Positions 10,153 through 17,443 of a stretch of DNA of 42,139 nucleotides are shown piece after piece. Numbering within the stretch: position 1 is the first letter of the stretch; every line of letters starts with the position of its first letter. A model generated the notes under the pieces. The model did no database searches. It was given only the letters and a program-made list of their open reading frames with translations, and was not told the origin of the DNA. Position numbers and translations under genes: made by a program. The stretch comes from Candidatus Woesearchaeota archaeon (lineage in GTDB: Archaea; Nanobdellota; Nanobdellia; SCGC-AAA011-G17; JAGVZF01), in assembly GCA_016185565.1 (NCBI GenBank), contig JACPNH010000049.1, forward strand, positions 1 to 42,139, in the 5' to 3' direction.

Positions 10153-11115
10153 CTAACCTAGAGTTTTCTTTCTCCTCAAAAATCTGACTATTAGAATAAT
10201 TAAAACCAACAAAACAATAAATCCGATAATATTATACAAGAATAGATTTTTTGTCAAATTTCTTTGCAGGCTATAAAAGTATTCAGTAGTCTTTAAGAAA
10301 TCAAAGGCATTGATGATGTAAGTTCCTCTATACAATATCATTAATGCCCCTGCAGCAATTATTAATATGCCAGCAATAAGATTAGTTGAATGTACCCCAA
10401 AATTCCCAATCTTAAATTCTTTTCCACGTAATAGTTTCGAATTCGTAAAATTGTATTTATCCCAGAAAAATGAAAGCAAAAACAATGGCACAAAAACCCC
10501 TATGGAATACGCAAACATAAGCAATCCAGCTTTAATGTAGTTTCCAAGGACTGAGGCTATAGTCAATATTCCTGCTAAAATAGGGCCTGCACAAACATTC
10601 CACCCAAGCCCAAAAAATATTCCATACAAATAAATTCCAGAAACATCGTGCTTAAATTTTTTGTTTAGTTTTAAGAAACTAAAACCCTTCCCTAGTATAG
10701 TCAGCAATCCGAATAGAACCAAAAAAATTCCTGCTATCAAAGCTAAGTTTGAATTTTCATATTGAAATTGAGCTAGAGTATTTCCTAATTTTGCTGCTAT
10801 TAACCCAAGTAATACAAAAATGGTTGTAAATCCCAAAAAGAATATAAATGTCATCTTTGTTATTTCTTTTTTTTCTTTAAATGTATAAGAGAAAAATGCT
10901 GGTATTGAAACATAACTGCATGGGCTTAGTATAGCCAATAAGCCTGCTAGAAATGCTATTAAAAAACTTAAGCTCCCTAGAAATTGCTTGGCGCTTTCCT
11001 TTTCATACTGCTGGCCTGCTATTATTGCTGGTGGCAAATGAGAGCTAGCACCTACATAATTTATGAAACTCAGAAAAAATAAAATTGCAAGTAAATAAAT
11101 AAAAATTTTTCTCAT
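10153..11115 (-). CDS. ccdA: CcdA/DsbD-family thiol:disulfide electron-transfer membrane protein (copy 1)
   Basis: Polytopic membrane protein with LAILSPCSYVSIPAFF and GLGWNVCAGPILAGIL, the two conserved Cys-containing helices of the DsbD_2/CcdA family. Confidence 0.8.
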   Translation of the reverse strand: MRKIFIYLLAILFFLSFINYVGASSHLPPAIIAGQQYEKESAKQFLGSLSFLIAFLAGLLAILSPCSYVSIPAFFSYTFKEKKEITKMTFIFFLGFTTIFVLLGLIAAKLGNTLAQFQYENSNLALIAGIFLVLFGLLTILGKGFSFLKLNKKFKHDVSGIYLYGIFFGLGWNVCAGPILAGILTIASVLGNYIKAGLLMFAYSIGVFVPLFLLSFFWDKYNFTNSKLLRGKEFKIGNFGVHSTNLIAGILIIAAGALMILYRGTYIINAFDFLKTTEYFYSLQRNLTKNLFLYNIIGFIVLLVLIILIVRFLRRKKTLG

Positions 11116-11130: not shown

Positions 11131-11529
11131 TTAGTTTACTACCACTTTGCCTTTCATATTGCTATGGCCTTCACCGCATGGAACTGTGCACACAAAATTG
11201 AATGTTCCTTTTTGGTCTGCCACAAATTCTACAGTAACAGTTTCCCCAGGATTAATTACTTTGTTTATGTTATAACCAGCAAGTCCAAATCCGTGGGTTA
11301 CATCGATGCTGTGCATCTTTAATATTACACTGTCACCTTCATTTACAGTAATTGTATCTGGAGTGTATTGCCATCTTTTTGCTTCTATGTTAAAAACCTT
11401 AGTTTCTCCTGTTGGCGGCAATGGCGGGGGGCCTATTTTATCTTTTTTTTGTGTATTTTGGGTTGTGTTACTACATGCTGCTATAAATAAAACTGATAAA
11501 ATAAAAAATGCAATAAAATATTTCTTCAT
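11131..11529 (-). CDS. Stand-alone CuA-type cupredoxin lipoprotein (cytochrome oxidase subunit II-like domain)
   Basis: Lipobox FIAAC. The ligand pattern H-x34-C-x3-C-x3-H-x2-M (THGF...FVCTVPCGEGHSNM) matches the binuclear CuA site in identity and spacing. Confidence 0.8.
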   Translation of the reverse strand: MKKYFIAFFILSVLFIAACSNTTQNTQKKDKIGPPPLPPTGETKVFNIEAKRWQYTPDTITVNEGDSVILKMHSIDVTHGFGLAGYNINKVINPGETVTVEFVADQKGTFNFVCTVPCGEGHSNMKGKVVVN

Positions 11530-11530
11530 T

Positions 11531-12757
11531 TTAAGTCACCTCCTGATTAGGTTGTTGATTTGATTCCAGTTTAGGCTCTACAACTTTATTGGTATTCAAG
11601 TCTTTGTAAGGAACTTGTAATATATCTAGGTTTCTGAATATATAATAATTATCAGTTTCTATGCTACCTACTTGCGACCATGCTTCTTTTAAGGAACTAT
11701 ACACATCTGCCTCATTACTCATGATGATTGTTGGGGCCTTTGTTATTTTATATTTTGTTATTAATGCTTGGCCCTCTGGGCTGCTTACATCAATGGTCTT
11801 TTCATTTGACAAAAACACTCCAAAATTTAACAATATGGGCTTGTGCAATGAAACATTATAGCAAATGTTGCAACTTTTATCCGTTATATAGGTTAATTCA
11901 ACTAAGCCTCTGACAGAATTGGTTAACAAATCTTTATATGGCGGAGGAGTTTGTCTTACAATATAGCTACTGTCACTTTCTATGCTCCCAAATTGTTTCC
12001 AGTTTGCGATTATCTGATTATCGATATAAGCATCTAAGTCGGAAGAAAATATCATAGTGGGAAGTTTAGTAATCTTATATTTTGTAATAAGTTCCTCAGC
12101 CTGGGTAAATTCTAGAGTTTTTTCATCTGTCATTATGACACCAGCCCTTACTAATTGAGTAATCAACGAGCTTATGTCTGAACAATCCTTACATCCGGAA
12201 TCCTTGATATGAACTAGGCTTACTTTTCCAACTTCTTTGTTTAATACGAGGTCATAATAAACTGGCCTTATATCTTCAAAAACTAAGGTGTCTTCTTTTT
12301 TTATTAGCCCCATCTCTCCTGTTTTGTCTATCTCTCCTGTAACTAAAACTGTAGGTAGTTTAGTAATTTCATTTTTAGAAATCAAGGCCTTTGCCTCAGG
12401 ATCAGAAAATTCAAGTGTTCTTTCGCTAGTAACATCAACATTATTGTCTTTTATTGAATCTATAACCTGATTGAGATTAAAGCAATCCTTGCAATTAGAA
12501 TTTCTCAATATGGTCAGGCTTATTAATGCAGGTTTGCTTTTTTCCTTTGCTTCTGCAAGAGCTTTGGTATAGGACTTTTGTACTCCAACTATGATTATAA
12601 CATTTATTAAAAGTATTATGGCCAAAACAACGCTTAAAATCAATTGGTAGTTTAATTTTGATTTTTTGATTTTTATATTTGGCTGTTGCAATGATTCTTG
12701 CACACCAATAGATTTTTCCTCTTTTTGTTTTTCTTCTGATTCTTCTGTGTTTTCCAT
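11531..12757 (-). CDS. Membrane-anchored protein with three tandem thioredoxin-fold CxxC modules
   Basis: One N-terminal TM helix followed by three units of about 100 aa. Each unit has a CxxC (CKDC, CKDC, CNIC), then ...E(R/K)T(L/I)(E/D)...(S/T)..E...LI(S/T)K(N/Y)(E/K)ITK(L/A)PT, which looks like a cis-Pro loop. Confidence 0.7.
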   Translation of the reverse strand: MENTEESEEKQKEEKSIGVQESLQQPNIKIKKSKLNYQLILSVVLAIILLINVIIIVGVQKSYTKALAEAKEKSKPALISLTILRNSNCKDCFNLNQVIDSIKDNNVDVTSERTLEFSDPEAKALISKNEITKLPTVLVTGEIDKTGEMGLIKKEDTLVFEDIRPVYYDLVLNKEVGKVSLVHIKDSGCKDCSDISSLITQLVRAGVIMTDEKTLEFTQAEELITKYKITKLPTMIFSSDLDAYIDNQIIANWKQFGSIESDSSYIVRQTPPPYKDLLTNSVRGLVELTYITDKSCNICYNVSLHKPILLNFGVFLSNEKTIDVSSPEGQALITKYKITKAPTIIMSNEADVYSSLKEAWSQVGSIETDNYYIFRNLDILQVPYKDLNTNKVVEPKLESNQQPNQEVT

Positions 12758-12850: not shown

Positions 12851-13066
12851 CTAACAACCGCCAACCATCTGTGGTAAGTTATTTACATCGTTCAATTCTG
12901 TAGCAATTGAATTTCCTGTAGATACACTCGTTGATTTTGAGTTTGTGCCAAGACTTATTTTTCCTGCGCTCATATCTGTTTTCAATTGCACTAGCTGAAA
13001 TGCCTGCACTGCAGAAATAACTACTAGTATGGCTAACACAGCTATAACCACAATATTTTTATTCAT
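12851..13066 (-). CDS. Small membrane-anchored protein ending in LPQMVGGC
   Basis: A 71-aa protein with an N-terminal hydrophobic helix, a Ser/Thr-rich linker and an extreme C-terminus NDVNNLPQMVGGC. Both termini are paralogous to those of the upstream gene. Only 3 nt separate it from that gene. Confidence 0.6.
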   Translation of the reverse strand: MNKNIVVIAVLAILVVISAVQAFQLVQLKTDMSAGKISLGTNSKSTSVSTGNSIATELNDVNNLPQMVGGC

Positions 13067-13069
13067 TTT

Positions 13070-13774
13070 TTAACAACCTCCTACCATTTCAGGTAAATCT
13101 GCTGAATTAATATCGCCTACACTACTTTTTTGGCCTGATTTTAATTTTTGGATTAAAGCTCGATCATTCAAAACATCTGGGCTTAATTCAAGCCCATTTT
13201 GATTTGCTAATACTGCTTTTTCAACCATGTTCTTTGGGTAGTATATAGACTTCCATTTTGTTAATTCCCAAAGTATTTGCTCATCACTCATTTCAGGATG
13301 GTTTTTGACTAAATATTTTGCCAATCCTTTAAAACTTGCAGCATGACTGCAACCACATAAACTTCTTCCTTGAGAGTCAATTACAGCAGGTGCACTACAG
13401 CAGAATTCACAGCTGATTTTTGTTCCAATATTAATATATCTTGACTTTTCTTCTGAAGTTAAACTGCTATCTTGCACAACTCTATCTAAGGCGGCTAGTT
13501 TACTTAAACTTTTTACAGGATCGTCATAACTAATCCCCAATTCATTACCATAAACTTCAGGGGTTCCTTTTGGGATTAATTTATTAATTATCTCATTTAC
13601 ATCTGCATTAGCACTTAATTTTATTGAACTTGTTGCTGCTCCAGTTGTGAATAATTGATTTCCTGTTAAGGCAGAGATTTGTATTTGATTAAATATAATA
13701 ACAACTGCAACGATGCCAATAAAAACATATCCTGTGTACTCAGAAATTTTTTCTTTTTTATTAGTCGGTTCCAT
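13070..13774 (-). CDS. Membrane-anchored Cys-rich protein ending in LPEMVGGC
   Basis: N-terminal TM helix. The central domain reads ISCEFCCSAPAVIDSQGRSLCGCSHAASFKGLAKYL...MSDEQILWELTKW, which is loosely reminiscent of PCYCGC-motif proteins. The C-terminus is GDINSADLPEMVGGC. Confidence 0.65.
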   Translation of the reverse strand: MEPTNKKEKISEYTGYVFIGIVAVVIIFNQIQISALTGNQLFTTGAATSSIKLSANADVNEIINKLIPKGTPEVYGNELGISYDDPVKSLSKLAALDRVVQDSSLTSEEKSRYINIGTKISCEFCCSAPAVIDSQGRSLCGCSHAASFKGLAKYLVKNHPEMSDEQILWELTKWKSIYYPKNMVEKAVLANQNGLELSPDVLNDRALIQKLKSGQKSSVGDINSADLPEMVGGC

Positions 13775-13997: not shown

Positions 13998-14072
13998 ATG
14001 GGAAAAAAATCCAAAAGGAAATCTAGGGCATCAAGCGGTTGTGGTTGTGGAGAAGATTGCACTTGTTGCTAG
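13998..14072 (+). CDS. Unannotated 24-aa Cys-rich, metallothionein-like peptide
   Basis: The sequence is MGKKSKRKSRASSGCGCGEDCTCC. A GGAG lies 8 nt upstream of the ATG. It is the first gene of the plus-strand redox operon and is below the ORF-track size cutoff. Confidence 0.4.
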   Translation: MGKKSKRKSRASSGCGCGEDCTCC

Positions 14073-14090: not shown

Positions 14091-14330
14091 ATGGCAAAAT
14101 CTGTTAAAATATACACTACAAGAACATGCCCGTACTGCCACATGGCAAAGGAGTTTTTCAAGGCAAACGATGTAAAGTACACCGAGATAGATGTTGGCAG
14201 CGACAGGAAGGCAGCTGAAGAGATGATCAAGAGGTCTGGACAGATGGGGGTTCCAGTGATTGATGTAGACGGAACAATAATTGTTGGCTATAACAAGGAA
14301 GCGTTGAAGAAGGCACTGTCCATAAAATAA
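14091..14330 (+). CDS. Glutaredoxin/NrdH-like small redoxin (CPYC)
   Basis: A 79-aa protein with IYTTRTCPYCHMAKEF...GVPVIDVDGTIIVGYN, the classic glutaredoxin fold pattern. Confidence 0.85.
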   Translation: MAKSVKIYTTRTCPYCHMAKEFFKANDVKYTEIDVGSDRKAAEEMIKRSGQMGVPVIDVDGTIIVGYNKEALKKALSIK

Positions 14331-14355
14331 TCTTAAATTTTAATTAAAACAAAAC

Positions 14356-14598
14356 ATGAAAAAGAGGTATCACATCTTTGTCTGCGGAAGATGCGGTTAT
14401 AGGGCTCATTCTAAAGTTACTTGCCCAACATGCCATATCCATCTTGAAGAGCAATGCCATAAATGCTTGAATGCTAAAGGAAATTGTATCTGCAGAATAC
14501 ATGGTCCTTTCAGGGCTGGAAAGCCGATAAAAATAGCCGTGTCAAAAAAATCAAAAGCCAGGTCAAGGAAGACAAGAAAGTCCAAGAAAAGAAGGTGA
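14356..14598 (+). CDS. Zinc-ribbon protein with a highly basic tail
   Basis: Contains CGRCG...CPTCH...CHKC...CIC, followed by the tail KKSKARSRKTRKSKKRR. Confidence 0.55.
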   Translation: MKKRYHIFVCGRCGYRAHSKVTCPTCHIHLEEQCHKCLNAKGNCICRIHGPFRAGKPIKIAVSKKSKARSRKTRKSKKRR

Positions 14599-14602
14599 CT
14601 TT

Positions 14603-15517
14603 ATGTATGATATTATAATCATTGGCGGAGGCCCTAGTGCACTGGCTGCTGCTGTTTATGCTGCTAGGCAGAAGGTTGATTTTATTGTAATAGCTGAAAA
14701 TGTTGGAGGCCAGATTCTTTGGAGTTCTGACATAGAGAATTATCTTGGATTTAAGTCAATAACTGGAATGGAACTGGTGCCAAGATTTATTGAACAAATT
14801 GAATATAATAAAGTGCAAATTAAAGATGAAAAAGTTTCTTCTATAGACAAAAAAGGCAATACCTTTATTGTAAAAACAGACAAAAATAACCCATATGAAA
14901 GTAAAACAATTTTAATAGCCTCTGGAAAAAAGCCTCGAAAATTAAATGTGTCAGGAGAGGATGAATTTCTAGGAAGGGGTGTTTCTTATTGCGCATTATG
15001 CGATGCCGCATTATTTCCAGATAAAAATGTAGCTGTTGTTGGTGGAGGAAATGCAGCCATGGATGCTGCATTATTAATACAAAAATATGCGAAGAAAGTA
15101 TACATAATTTCTATAAACGCTAGCTTAATGGGTGAGCCTTATATGCTAGATGAAATAAGGAAAAGCAACAAAATTGAAGTGATTACAAATGCAAAAACAA
15201 CCATTATTTCTGGCAGTAAATTTGTCACAGGAATTTCAATAGAAGTAGTAAATGAAAAGAAAACAATTCCAGTAGAGGGTGTTTTTGTAGAAATTGGATC
15301 TATTCCTAGTGTTGAATTCGACAACTTGACCAAAAAAAACCGTTATAATGAAATTATGATATATGGCAATGAAACTATGTCGAATATGACTTCTGTTTCT
15401 GGAATTTTTGCAGCAGGCGATGTTACAGATGTTCAAGAAAAACAAGTTATAGTTGCAGCTGGCGAAGGTGTTAAAGCAATTCTAGGAATTTTTAAATATC
15501 TTCAAACTTTGAAATAA
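14603..15517 (+). CDS. trxB: Thioredoxin-disulfide reductase
   Basis: Contains IIGGGPSALAAAVYAAR (FAD), the redox-active CALCDA, VVGGGNAAMDAA (NADPH) and GIFAAGDV. Confidence 0.85.
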   Translation: MYDIIIIGGGPSALAAAVYAARQKVDFIVIAENVGGQILWSSDIENYLGFKSITGMELVPRFIEQIEYNKVQIKDEKVSSIDKKGNTFIVKTDKNNPYESKTILIASGKKPRKLNVSGEDEFLGRGVSYCALCDAALFPDKNVAVVGGGNAAMDAALLIQKYAKKVYIISINASLMGEPYMLDEIRKSNKIEVITNAKTTIISGSKFVTGISIEVVNEKKTIPVEGVFVEIGSIPSVEFDNLTKKNRYNEIMIYGNETMSNMTSVSGIFAAGDVTDVQEKQVIVAAGEGVKAILGIFKYLQTLK

Positions 15518-15582
15518 AAAGAAAAAAGAATTTTAACTATAAAAACAAAATTTATAAAGAGCAAATAAACTATAGTTAATAT

Positions 15583-16125
15583 ATGAAAAAATATTTTTTA
15601 ATACTGTTAATAGTAAGCATAACAATAATAGCTTCCTGCAAAAATCAGGCAAACATTAATAACCAAATAAATACAAATGCAGCAAATGAGTTAGAGGAAT
15701 TCGGCATTTCAATAGGGAATAAAGCCCCGGATTTTGAGCTAAGAGGTTATGACGGGAAAACTATTAGTCTAAGTGTCTATAAAGGAAGCCCAGTAGTTTT
15801 AGATTTTTTTGCTTCTTGGTGCCCTTATTGCAATAATGAAATGCCAAGAATAAACAAAATAGTAAATGAAAAATACCCTAATGTAAAAATAATTGCAATC
15901 AATGACGCGTTTGAAGATGCAAAAACAATAGAAGCCTGGGCAAAAGAAAAAGGATTTGATTTTCCATTGTTAGTAGATCCAGAAGGAAAAGTAAAGGCTT
16001 TATATGCAATTCGTGGACATCCTACCACTATTTACATAGATAAGGAAGGCATTATAAAAGACAAAAGATACGGCTCTGGGGCTAATGCAGTTATTGAAGA
16101 AAACTTAAAGAAGATTACAACTTAA
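15583..16125 (+). CDS. TlpA/ResA-like extracytoplasmic thioredoxin lipoprotein
   Basis: Lipobox IIASC. Contains APDFEL...GKTISLSVYKGSPVVLDFFASWCPYCNNEMP...GHPTTIYID. Confidence 0.8.
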   Translation: MKKYFLILLIVSITIIASCKNQANINNQINTNAANELEEFGISIGNKAPDFELRGYDGKTISLSVYKGSPVVLDFFASWCPYCNNEMPRINKIVNEKYPNVKIIAINDAFEDAKTIEAWAKEKGFDFPLLVDPEGKVKALYAIRGHPTTIYIDKEGIIKDKRYGSGANAVIEENLKKITT

Positions 16126-16160
16126 ATTTAAAATAATTTTAAAAGACAAAAGGAGGGACA

Positions 16161-16733
16161 ATGAAAAAATATTTTTTAATTGGACTTGTTTTTTTGCTAT
16201 TAATCATTTCTAGCTGCAAGAATGCAAATCAAGAAACGAGCAATTCAGATTTAAATGAAAATAAAATAGCAATTGAAAATCAAAACACTATGCAAGAAAA
16301 TCAAAAACAAATAAATACAAACAGCCAAAAAACCAACATTATTACTCAAGAATCATCTTTTTCTGCATCTGGTAATATATTAGCGGGAACTAAAACCCTT
16401 TTTATTGATTTCAACAAAGAGGATTATGACAAAGCGCTTTCAGAAAACAGAGTAATTTTCCTTTATTTTTATGCAAACTGGTGCCCTATTTGCAGGGAAG
16501 AAATAAAACAAACTTATGCTGCATTTAATGGGCTTGGAAATGAAAATGTAGTTGGTTTTCAAGTAAACTATAAAGACTCTAACACAGACAAGAATGAAAT
16601 AGAATTGGCAAAGCAATTCGGAATAACATACCAGCATACTAAAGTAATAATAAAAAATGGAGAAAGAATACTAAAAGATGGAAACTCCTGGAATAAAGAA
16701 ACGTATATTAATGAAATAAACAAATATGGTTGA
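16161..16733 (+). CDS. Thioredoxin-like lipoprotein (WCPIC)
   Basis: Lipobox IISSC, a low-complexity N/Q linker, then IFLYFYANWCPICREE. Its first 20 nt are identical to those of the TlpA-like gene at 15583. Confidence 0.7.
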   Translation: MKKYFLIGLVFLLLIISSCKNANQETSNSDLNENKIAIENQNTMQENQKQINTNSQKTNIITQESSFSASGNILAGTKTLFIDFNKEDYDKALSENRVIFLYFYANWCPICREEIKQTYAAFNGLGNENVVGFQVNYKDSNTDKNEIELAKQFGITYQHTKVIIKNGERILKDGNSWNKETYINEINKYG

Positions 16734-17443
16734 ATAAAATGGTGGAAGTCACAATAATTGCAGCTTTTCTTGCGGGTATTGTTTCTTTTTTAAGTCCTTG
16801 CATTCTGCCTTTAATACCAGGATTTTTAGCTTATTTGGCTGGTGTAAATCCAGAAGATAGTTCTGCAAAAGCTAGAACAAAGATGTTCTTAAACAGCTTA
16901 ATTTTTGTATTAGGGTTTTCAGCAGTTTTTTCTTTGCTCGGAGTTTTATTAAATAGCATTCTTGAAAAGAACTCTTATACAATTCAATTATGGCTGAGTA
17001 GAGTTGGTGGTGTTATAATTATTTTATTTGGCTTTTATGTTTTAAAATTAATAAAAATCCCATTCCTTGAGAAGGAACATAAGTTGCAAATAAAGGGATT
17101 AAAGCCAAGCTATTTCGCTTCATTTTTATTTGGGGCAGCTTTTGCCGTCGGCTGGACTCCTTGCGTGGGTGCTGTTCTAGGAGCTATTTTAACTTTAGCA
17201 TTAACAAACCCTGGGCAAAGTTTTTATTTACTTTTAAGTTATGCAATCGGTTTGGGTATTCCTTTTTTAATTGTAGGGATATTTTCAACTAAAGCTCTAA
17301 CCTTAATAAAGAAAAATGAAAAATTCTTTAAATACTTTAATGTATTTGTAGGCATATTTTTAATAACCCTTGGAGTATTGGTTTTTACACAACAATTAAG
17401 TAGGGTTGCGAGTTTGGGTGTTGTTAGCAGATTGGTGCCATAA
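16730..17443 (+). CDS. ccdA: CcdA-family thiol:disulfide electron-transfer membrane protein (copy 2)
   Basis: Contains FLSPCILPLIPGFLAYLAG and GWTPCVGAVLGAIL and has six or more hydrophobic helices. It overlaps the upstream gene by 4 nt. Confidence 0.85.
   Translation: MNKMVEVTIIAAFLAGIVSFLSPCILPLIPGFLAYLAGVNPEDSSAKARTKMFLNSLIFVLGFSAVFSLLGVLLNSILEKNSYTIQLWLSRVGGVIIILFGFYVLKLIKIPFLEKEHKLQIKGLKPSYFASFLFGAAFAVGWTPCVGAVLGAILTLALTNPGQSFYLLLSYAIGLGIPFLIVGIFSTKALTLIKKNEKFFKYFNVFVGIFLITLGVLVFTQQLSRVASLGVVSRLVP

Follow-up and report, generated by a model that had tools for sequence, protein, structure and literature searches.

A CuA-type cupredoxin lipoprotein predicted to stand alone in a Candidatus Woesearchaeota archaeon, and its association with envelope thiol-redox and copper-export genes

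[quoted passage not shown] Herein, we describe a gene for a CuA-type cupredoxin lipoprotein of 132 aa located on the minus strand (11131..11529) of a 42,139-nucleotide stretch of DNA from a Candidatus Woesearchaeota archaeon (contig JACPNH010000049.1 of assembly GCA_016185565.1; the whole stretch is hereafter called the window). As predicted from its sequence and a structural model, the product is a genuine stand-alone, lipid-anchored, and extracytoplasmic CuA-type copper protein, and not a subunit of an oxidase or an N2O reductase. Two points are solid, namely that this CuA-type protein occurs without an oxidase or N2O reductase, and that the genes of its family travel with envelope thiol-redox genes and copper exporters. 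As for its function, we tentatively favor, at a probability of roughly 0.4, an envelope copper-accepting and redox-active protein whose cysteines would be kept reduced by a co-encoded thiol relay, outside respiration.

The open reading frame (ORF) starts with ATG one nucleotide after the stop of the upstream gene, and its Shine-Dalgarno sequence, AGGAGGTGA, lies within the end of that gene. Reading of the sequence identified a signal peptide up to the lipobox F-I-A-A-C19 (11473..11529; Cys codon at 11473-11475), followed by a low-complexity Pro/Thr/Gln linker of 23 residues (residues 20-42; 11404..11472), which tethers the cupredoxin domain (residues 43-132; 11134..11403). The N-terminus thus described carries only the signal peptide with the lipobox, without the two transmembrane (TM) helices of oxidase subunit II, and in these features as well as in its length the protein is just as the initial annotation, made from the letters of the DNA, had claimed. 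The same annotation had suggested that the protein could be soluble, which does not hold for a protein tethered to the membrane by its lipobox. The proposed CuA ligand pattern H-x34-C-x3-C-x3-H-x2-M was counted on the sequence and verified codon by codon as H79-x34-C114-x3-C118-x3-H122-x2-M125, with the codons at 11293-11295, 11188-11190, 11176-11178, 11164-11166, and 11155-11157, respectively, and the pattern was unique among the 1.6 million six-frame residues of the source genome.

A phmmer search against the PDB matched the protein to the CuA domain of the Thermus thermophilus ba3 oxidase (E 2.8e-15) and to engineered variants thereof (E 1.9e-17), with all the ligands aligned one for one; to judge by this alignment, the match is one of homology and not of chance. 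NCBIfam gave its highest match, at 71 bits, to Sec-type NosZ, and within that model to positions 490-576 of 578, the C-terminal CuA domain. In Pfam, both Cupredoxin_1 (PF13473; 50.4 bits, cut-off 27) and COX2 (24.9 bits) exceeded their cut-offs, and the CoxB model TIGR02866 gave 49 bits, below its cut-off of 147.7. A 3D model built with AlphaFold2 from an alignment of 28 homologues had a predicted local distance difference test score (pLDDT) of 97-98 across residues 41-132 and of 56-72 in the linker. The modeled domain was superimposed on that of T. thermophilus (2CUA) with a root-mean-square deviation (RMSD) of 1.0 Å over 88 residues at 38% identity, and on the CuA domains of NosZ at 0.9-1.1 Å; the top matches in Foldseek were, without exception, CuA domains within the same range (RMSD 0.9-1.1 Å).

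The source genome (0.80 Mb in 53 contigs, 84% complete, 32% G+C), whose archaeal ribosomal proteins include S28e and L7Ae, was searched as a whole for the partners of a conventional CuA subunit. COX1 (PF00115) was absent, the control genomes being matched, and neither cytochrome bd nor Sco nor PCuAC was found. Of NosZ, the source genome likewise had the CuA domain and no other part: TIGR04246, chosen for the test of the NosZ propeller because PF18764 matched nothing anywhere, control included, matched only at positions 491-577, and gave 899 bits over its full length in the acidobacterial genome used as the positive control (G048). Candidate c-type cytochromes were absent from the source genome, in which only eight ORFs had a single CxxCH, none of them cytochrome c-like, and tblastn detected no homologue of DsbA or DoxX there. 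In a genome of the same genus (G285; 96% complete), the syntenic operon was present and COX1 was not, and none of the 201 genomes sampled from the class had COX1 above the cut-off. Among the 50 genomes carrying family members, 45 lacked COX1, all 45 small genomes being among these, and the five COX1-positive carriers were bacteria of 4-6.7 Mb, each with a separate full-length COX2 beside COX1. Since the congener, the class sample, and the carrier genomes were without COX1, incompleteness of the source genome is not the reason for the missing partner, and the stand-alone status of the protein was supported. The initial annotation, which had taken the protein to be other than a conventional subunit, was in this respect borne out by the search for oxidase or nosZ partners, as none was found. 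A second, weak Cupredoxin_1 match in the source genome (contig C42) was discarded because it lacks metal ligands. The same contig encodes a 290-aa lipoprotein (L003:326-1198, +) having a C-terminal cupredoxin-like sandwich without a metal ligand, and its gene adjoins that of a ZIP-type metal transporter.

A scan of species genomes gave 289 related stretches, of which the best 80 loci, with 84 family ORFs, were analysed and are the basis of the locus counts given below. Their hosts were DPANN archaea (44 loci), Candidate Phyla Radiation (CPR) bacteria (12), seven small genomes with vague or implausible labels, and, for the rest, bacteria of the Desulfobacterales, Omnitrophota, Acidobacteriota, Chloroflexota, and Victivallales; most hosts thus sampled are groundwater DPANN and CPR or anaerobic bacteria. 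Relatives of the source archaeon are labelled Woesearchaeota or Nanoarchaeota. The public metagenome-assembled genomes (MAGs) of L015, L026, L045, and L078 and of L029, L032, L039, L068, and L069 (0.8-1.4 Mb) carry the labels 'uncultured Methanosarcinales' or 'uncultured Gammaproteobacteria', which are probably wrong, as these genomes resemble those of DPANN or CPR in size and gene content. A word-indexed search gave 75 homologues of 78-227 aa, all but one with solely Pfam COX2 or Cupredoxin_1 matches; some homologues bear the JGI label 'cytochrome c oxidase subunit 2', and a marine (Tara) homologue (P0019) is 45% identical. The complete ligand set was retained in 80 of the 84 family ORFs, archaeal and bacterial, and the ligands were invariant or almost so in alignment A1, with ligand loss in the relatives L092 and L093. 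A lipobox or an N-terminal TM anchor was conserved for most members of the 28-sequence alignment, the linker being variable in both length and sequence.

In a quick maximum-likelihood tree of 116 CuA domains (92 columns), which follows the suggestion of the initial annotation to compare the protein with CoxB and NosZ, COX2 was separated from all the others with a Shimodaira-Hasegawa-like approximate likelihood ratio test (SH-aLRT) value of 97, and the family fell on the NosZ side. NosZ formed a clade of its own (99), and 74 stand-alone sequences formed one distinct group (90), in which archaea and bacteria were intermixed, thus indicating horizontal transfer. The protein of the window was sister (SH-aLRT 92) to Desulfobacterales copies, several of which lie beside CopA. 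Two of the 80 loci, both from Chloroflexota, proved to be NosZ C-termini in the tree. The family itself has already been described (Zhang et al., 2024; PMC10936187), and our tree placement agrees with the published one; what is new here is the company of thiol and copper genes, the DsbA-CuA fusions, and the enrichment of CcdA and CopA in the class sample. Literature searches for a cupredoxin with DoxX, or for PF13473, gave nothing about this family.

The cupredoxin gene is the fourth of a minus-strand operon having the order Cys-rich MVGGC-tail protein, mini MVGGC protein, triple-thioredoxin protein, cupredoxin, and CcdA. The two Cys-rich 'MVGGC-tail' proteins at the operon head (12851..13774) were recognized as ORFs and are syntenic in the congener (L150). 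The third gene (11531..12757), translationally coupled to the cupredoxin gene, encodes a membrane-anchored protein with three thioredoxin-fold CxxC units, as indicated by weak matches to Thioredoxin_2/_3 of Pfam and to protein disulfide oxidoreductase (PDO) models of NCBIfam, and this protein is the probable reductant for the C114/C118 pair. The gene order is shared by L004, L037, L063, and L150, which represent a 65%-identical metagenomic homologue, two other Woese/Pacearchaeota, and the congener. Fifteen nucleotides past the cupredoxin stop lies the gene for a CcdA/DsbD-type thiol-reductant transporter of 320 aa (10153..11115, minus strand; DsbD_TM, 54 bits), which is 32% identical to a second CcdA (16730-17443). 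A Rosetta-stone link from this CcdA to the HMA-DsbD_2-Cupredoxin_1 fusions described below was considered and rejected, as there was no significant similarity and the protein is an ordinary CcdA paralogue. The divergent plus-strand operon (14091..17443), delineated from Pfam matches and ORFs, encodes a glutaredoxin, a zinc ribbon protein, a thioredoxin reductase, a TlpA-like lipoprotein (WCPYC), a thioredoxin-like lipoprotein (WCPIC), and the second CcdA, and it supplies and uses reducing power. A small ORF (13998-14072, +; MGKKSKRKSRASSGCGCGEDCTCC) with six Cys among its last 11 residues lies at the head of this operon, immediately upstream of the gene for glutaredoxin. The CopA of the source genome, a protein of 797 aa with two HMA domains, is encoded on contig C27 (C27:5619-8675, -), and upstream of it are two genes, one for an 87-aa membrane protein, the other for a 109-aa ArsR-like regulator ending in C-N-C-S-E-L-C-R-C.

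To survey the gene company of the family, all ORFs lying no more than 5 kb from the gene were clustered for the 80 loci without recourse to annotation. DoxX was the most frequent immediate neighbor (16 loci; 14 within 500 bp), followed by DsbA-like proteins (13; 7 within 500 bp). Fe/Mn superoxide dismutase was present in 6 loci, five of them in CPR (5 within 500 bp), glutaredoxin in 6 (0 within 500 bp), MVGGC proteins in 6 (1 within 500 bp), and CcdA in 5 (4 within 500 bp). Taken together, thioredoxin, DsbA, CcdA, glutaredoxin, or MVGGC genes were located within 5 kb in 26 of the 80 loci and in 24 of the 44 DPANN loci. A thioredoxin-fold gene translationally coupled upstream of the cupredoxin occurs in two distinct types of operon, the second of which is conserved in Woesearchaeota and runs DsbA, thioredoxin lipoprotein (WCPHC), cupredoxin, DoxX, Lit-family protein, and glutaredoxin, with overlapping stop and start codons throughout. 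BLASTP detected no homology between the 166-aa thioredoxin lipoprotein of this operon type and the triple-thioredoxin protein of the window.

As for copper export, an unfiltered count of 12 loci with CopA included P2-type ATPases and CusB-like proteins, and filtering for the CPC motif left true copper P1B-ATPases (CPC motif, HMA or YHS N-terminus) within 2.2 kb in 8 of the 80 loci, three within 500 bp and four at less than 600 bp. These loci belong to Desulfobacterales, Omnitrophota, Victivallales, and DPANN, the distance being 40-760 bp in the three bacterial groups. The arrangement is CusC-CusB-CusA-cupredoxin-...-YHS in Omnitrophota and CsoR-CopA-DUF1573-YHS-cupredoxin in L012, and the archaeon G165 has a CopA-cupredoxin operon with 43 bp between the two genes. 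No respiratory gene recurred in the neighborhoods of the 80 loci, and nosDFYL/nosR were not among the recurring neighbors, although no search was aimed at them.

Further neighbors were recorded. The Lit-family membrane protein, Lit being a lipoprotein intramolecular transacylase (PF07314, 114 bits; L058:8635-9258, +; also in L064, L090, and L057), follows two lipobox proteins, namely the thioredoxin lipoprotein and the cupredoxin, and DoxX, and the Fe/Mn superoxide dismutase gene of the CPR loci L030, L032, L035, L047, and L085 stands immediately before or after the cupredoxin gene. A family of membrane proteins of 160-220 aa with G-C-x-x-C in a predicted TM segment and no Pfam match was found beside DsbA and the cupredoxin in 6 of the 80 loci (e.g., L027:9390-9881, -; L043:6878-7537, +; L046:1368-1949, +), and has a member in the source genome (C2:11335-11796). 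VKOR lies directly beside the CuA cupredoxin in G124 (C1:194206-194856), and on both sides of the CopA-cupredoxin island in G165 (C1:610365-619267).

The association was also seen at the genome level. A profile search of the 201 class genomes gave 49 positives, of which reading of the sequences left 14 with a CuA-type site; most of the weaker matches were other cupredoxins, namely type-1-like (YYCSVG-HR-GM), CKTCW...GHP, plastocyanin-like, and Cys/Met Cupredoxin_1 proteins. CcdA was present in 8 of the 14 CuA-type genomes vs 22 of the 187 others (odds ratio 10, p 0.0002), and CopA in 11 of 14 vs 72 of 187 (odds ratio 5.9, p 0.004); resting on 14 positives and taking no account of shared ancestry, these tests are indicative only. 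VKOR was detected in 8 of 14 vs 79 of 187 (odds ratio 1.8, p 0.4), and the idea that CuA replaces VKOR was accordingly dropped, as the two showed no complementary distribution across the class genomes.

Reading of the long profile-matching frames, together with a region-restricted protein search, revealed natural fusions. A 511-aa protein (L151:1387-2922, +) combines a TM anchor, a DsbA domain, and a complete CuA domain, and P0076 (282 aa) is a DsbA-CuA fusion with the full site and an apparently truncated N-terminus. CuA domains are also C-terminal in a 1241-aa subtilase that has numerous Cys-rich repeats (L152:1043-4768, +) and in a 385-aa Cys-rich repeat protein (L153:2585-3742, -; archaeon G175), and P0077 is a fusion with an SLH domain. 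These fusions place the CuA domain at the cell surface and tie it physically to a DsbA-type thiol oxidoreductase. In other relatives the site is altered: in the DsbA-cupredoxin fusions L154:2556-4094 (-) and P0083, the loop has become C-S-S-C-E-D-W-R-G-M or C-S-N-C with both His gone, the congener orthologue (L150:3904-4350, -; contig C3 of G285) ends in C-TVP-C-GPG-H-KD-V with Val in place of the axial Met, and a paralogue (L168, G307) has His at that position.

The same archaeal class contains TM-anchored Cupredoxin_1 proteins of about 130 aa (L139-L148; e.g., L139:1101-1493, -, and L142:1023-1418, +), which have the motifs G-C-x-R-x-F and F-x-C-S-M-G-M-G, i.e., Cys and Met without His, and are encoded in cop operons whose other products are CopA, a chaperone of the HMA type, and an ArsR-like regulator; they are probably Cu(I)-binding domains. 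A 456-aa protein (L149:4796-6166, -) unites HMA and DsbD_2 with such a Cys/Met Cupredoxin_1 domain at its C-terminus, 1.8 kb from CopA with one ORF between, and a fragment resembling it (L138) lies upstream of CopA. The soft-ligand fusions and the occurrence of the Cys/Met sister family in cop operons thus suggest that copper binding is the common denominator of the relatives.

On these grounds we propose the following working mechanism for the envelope copper/thiol reading. The protein would be exported and anchored through Cys19, with some 25 residues of flexible linker as its tether, as its lipobox and model suggest. C114 and C118 would be kept as a dithiol by the triple-thioredoxin protein, whose gene is linked to that of the cupredoxin at the locus and whose reaction is proposed by analogy with TlpA-CoxB and ScsB/ScsC-CueP, and this protein may in turn receive electrons through the adjacent CcdA from the cytoplasmic thioredoxin reductase/glutaredoxin of the divergent operon, again by analogy. 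Cu(I) exported by CopA (contig C27) may be caught by the Cys2His2Met site, and the loaded protein could buffer envelope copper or pass it on. As a one-electron center of roughly +250 mV, the site could also accept or release single electrons, and the expected outcome would be less copper-catalyzed thiol damage at the cell surface. Its mode of action would then resemble that of Salmonella CueP with Scs, or of CopL or CusF, except that the site is of the CuA type. The source genome being devoid of c-type cytochromes, nothing of that kind needs CcdA there, which we count toward the thiol link. Precedents exist for the separate parts: TlpA is required to keep the cysteines of CoxB reduced ahead of metallation (PMC6669012); Salmonella CueP receives Cu+ from CopA, and the DsbD-like ScsB and the DsbA-like ScsC cooperate with it (PMC10907172); CopL, whose gene accompanies that of a copper pump, is a surface lipoprotein that binds copper, and lit2 of Listeria, which encodes a second Lit enzyme, is copper-induced and co-transcribed with copper-resistance genes (PMC8275575). 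It is these precedents, together with the gene company, that lead us to favor the copper/thiol reading.

Several observations weigh against it. As reduced cysteines and exported copper are what the assembly of a CuA center needs, the linkage to CcdA, thioredoxin, and CopA may report maturation and not function. The ligand set is of the electron-transfer type including the weak axial Met, and its retention in 80 of the 84 ORFs argues for a redox function; moreover, the Cu(I)-trap-like cupredoxins of the same organisms are of another kind, having Cys/Met but not His. At this locus copper genes are missing from the immediate neighborhood, CopA being on another contig, and 41 of the 44 DPANN loci have no CopA nearby. 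The co-occurrence statistics, with their 14 positive genomes, also ignore phylogenetic non-independence. The initial annotation had instead suggested an extracellular electron carrier; this was not sustained, as no donor or acceptor is identifiable and the gene company fits copper handling or CuA maturation at least equally.

A redox role could nevertheless take another form, in which the oxidized CuA center, either as a one-electron sink or as a relay together with DoxX and scavenged quinone, would re-oxidize DsbA-like proteins and thereby power the formation of disulfide bonds in organisms lacking a respiratory chain, in effect as a copper-dependent sulfhydryl-oxidase system; we regard this as possible but doubtful. 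It would account for the DsbA-like genes within 5 kb in 13 of the 80 loci (adjacent in 7), for the Woesearchaeal operon from DsbA to glutaredoxin, for the rank of DoxX as the top immediate neighbor (14 of 80), and for the fusions of CuA to DsbA (L151, P0076) and to disulfide-rich repeat proteins (L152, L153), and the strictly kept electron-transfer-type site suits a redox job better than storage. On the other hand, reduced CuA would have no identifiable terminal acceptor, the one-electron oxidation of dithiols would require a 2e/1e converter, and we know of no reaction of CuA with O2. The distribution of VKOR, which usually oxidizes DsbA in these lineages, does not complement that of the cupredoxin (8/14 vs 79/187), the partners at this locus are reductive (CcdA, thioredoxin reductase, TlpA-like protein), the source genome has no DsbA or DoxX homologue by tblastn, and the sister fusions carry CxxC...Met without His instead of a CuA site. 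That the orphan CuA protein is the missing oxidant for envelope disulfide formation in respiration-free, ultra-small archaea and bacteria, receiving electrons from DsbA-like proteins, to which it is fused in some lineages, either directly or via DoxX and scavenged quinone, and delivering them to an external acceptor or to the host, is unlikely. It is improbable that no binuclear center forms in vivo, in which case the site would hold mononuclear copper or another metal, or C114-C118 would act as a disulfide relay, the CuA-like ligands being an evolutionary leftover. The Val of the congener orthologue, the ligand loss (L092, L093) or CxxC loop replacement in relatives, and the want of a Sco or PCuAC chaperone for CuA assembly in the source genome would fit such a site, but axial-Met variants of CuA still form the binuclear center and soluble CuA fragments assemble in vitro with copper salts and no chaperones, while 80 of the 84 ORFs, across archaea and bacteria, keep all five ligands with the same spacing and loop conformation and the model is within 1 Å of real CuA domains.

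A respiratory role, N2O-reductase-like or other, in which electrons would pass from the CuA protein to a catalytic partner, so far unrecognised, within the same cell or in the host cell, is the 'nosZ-like' reading raised for DPANN of marine oxygen-deficient zones (ODZs) by Zhang et al. (PMC10936187), and we consider it very improbable. The NosZ CuA domain is the best hidden Markov model (HMM) match of the protein, the family lies on the NosZ side of the COX2 split (SH-aLRT 97), and the long tether and the SLH fusions would put the domain at the outer surface within reach of a host partner. Nevertheless, the CuZ/propeller part is missing, TIGR04246 being limited to positions 491-577, the neighborhoods contain no recurrent respiratory gene, the family occurs widely among DPANN and CPR of groundwater without being bound to N2O-rich zones, and a nosZ deletion of P. 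aeruginosa was not complemented (PMC10936187). Finally, the view that the protein is a conventional oxidase subunit II whose partner genes are missing from an incomplete MAG is close to refuted. The 84% completeness in 53 contigs and the JGI label on some homologues would allow it, but the TM helices are lacking, the CoxB model stays at 49 bits against its cut-off of 147.7, COX1 is missing from the 96%-complete congener, the 201 class genomes, and 45 of 45 small carrier genomes, the COX1-bearing bacteria have a separate full-length COX2 adjoining, and COX2 is split off in the tree.

To our knowledge, the soluble CuA proteins studied to date are all cut-out or engineered domains. A CuA protein that is free-standing in nature and widespread in organisms without respiration raises two questions, namely what purpose a copper site of the pure electron-transfer type serves and by what route it is put together in the absence of Sco or PCuAC. 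DPANN and CPR, whose envelope biology is almost unknown, are dominant in many groundwater communities; should the copper/thiol reading be true, the genes would form a common surface defense module of DPANN archaea and CPR bacteria. Were CuA instead a partner of DsbA, it would explain how disulfide bonds are made in these cells and represent a new route of oxidative protein folding, and as a disulfide oxidant it would be the first natural CuA protein acting outside a terminal oxidase or reductase. The neighborhood, fusion, and co-occurrence data narrow these hypotheses, and the locus itself adds no new type of system; a CuA protein that occurs free in nature is well suited as a biochemical target, and its domain of 90 residues is small, very confidently predicted, easy to express, and amenable to spectroscopy.

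Among the known systems, the closest by description are the 'DPANN nosZ-like' proteins, which have a CuA site, no CuZ, no respiratory chain, and a function stated to be unknown (Zhang et al., 2024, mBio; PMC10936187); in that report the family was placed between Cox2 and clade II NosZ and described as confined to marine ODZs, and N2O reduction was considered. Like the protein of the window, they are small and exported, occur in Woese-/Pace-/Nanoarchaeota, and have the CuA motif C-x3-C-x3-H, and they score 20-58 bits with the NosZ HMM, the protein of the window reaching 71 bits. Unlike the marine distribution reported for them, the family as sampled here is mainly one of groundwater DPANN/CPR and anaerobic bacteria, linked to thiol-relay and copper-export genes. 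Subunit II of the Thermus ba3 oxidase (2CUA; 1EHK chain B) has the same ligand set and spacing, at the 38% identity and 1.0 Å over 88 residues given above, but possesses a TM helix and is docked onto subunit I, whereas the protein of the window has a lipobox and a linker in a genome without subunit I. With the CuA domain of NosZ (1FWX, 3SBP; RMSD 0.9-1.1 Å) the protein shares the F-x-A-D-K-x-G strand ahead of the Cys loop, but it lacks the seven-bladed N-terminal propeller and the CuZ site of NosZ, which stands in its own 99%-supported clade.

The copper-handling systems resemble the locus in arrangement. CopL (S. aureus copBL), CusF, and CopI are likewise small and extracytoplasmic, CopL being a lipoprotein too, and are encoded beside a P1B ATPase or a resistance-nodulation-division (RND) copper pump, but CopL and CusF differ in fold, CopI is a type-1 cupredoxin, and none of the three has a CuA site. 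The TlpA-CoxB pair of Bradyrhizobium, i.e., a membrane-anchored periplasmic thioredoxin and its CuA client, matches the pairing of a thioredoxin-fold protein with a CuA protein at the locus, although the chaperones ScoI and PcuC of that pathway are absent from the source genome and the client here is not an oxidase subunit. In the Scs/CueP system of Salmonella, which is a functional analogy only, a DsbD-type importer and proteins of the thioredoxin/DsbA fold serve a Cys-containing periplasmic copper protein; CueP is unrelated to cupredoxins in sequence and fold, and its counterpart in the window is a set of CcdA, triple-thioredoxin, and TlpA-like proteins encoded together with a Cys2His2Met copper protein, whose site is a predicted redox-active binuclear center.

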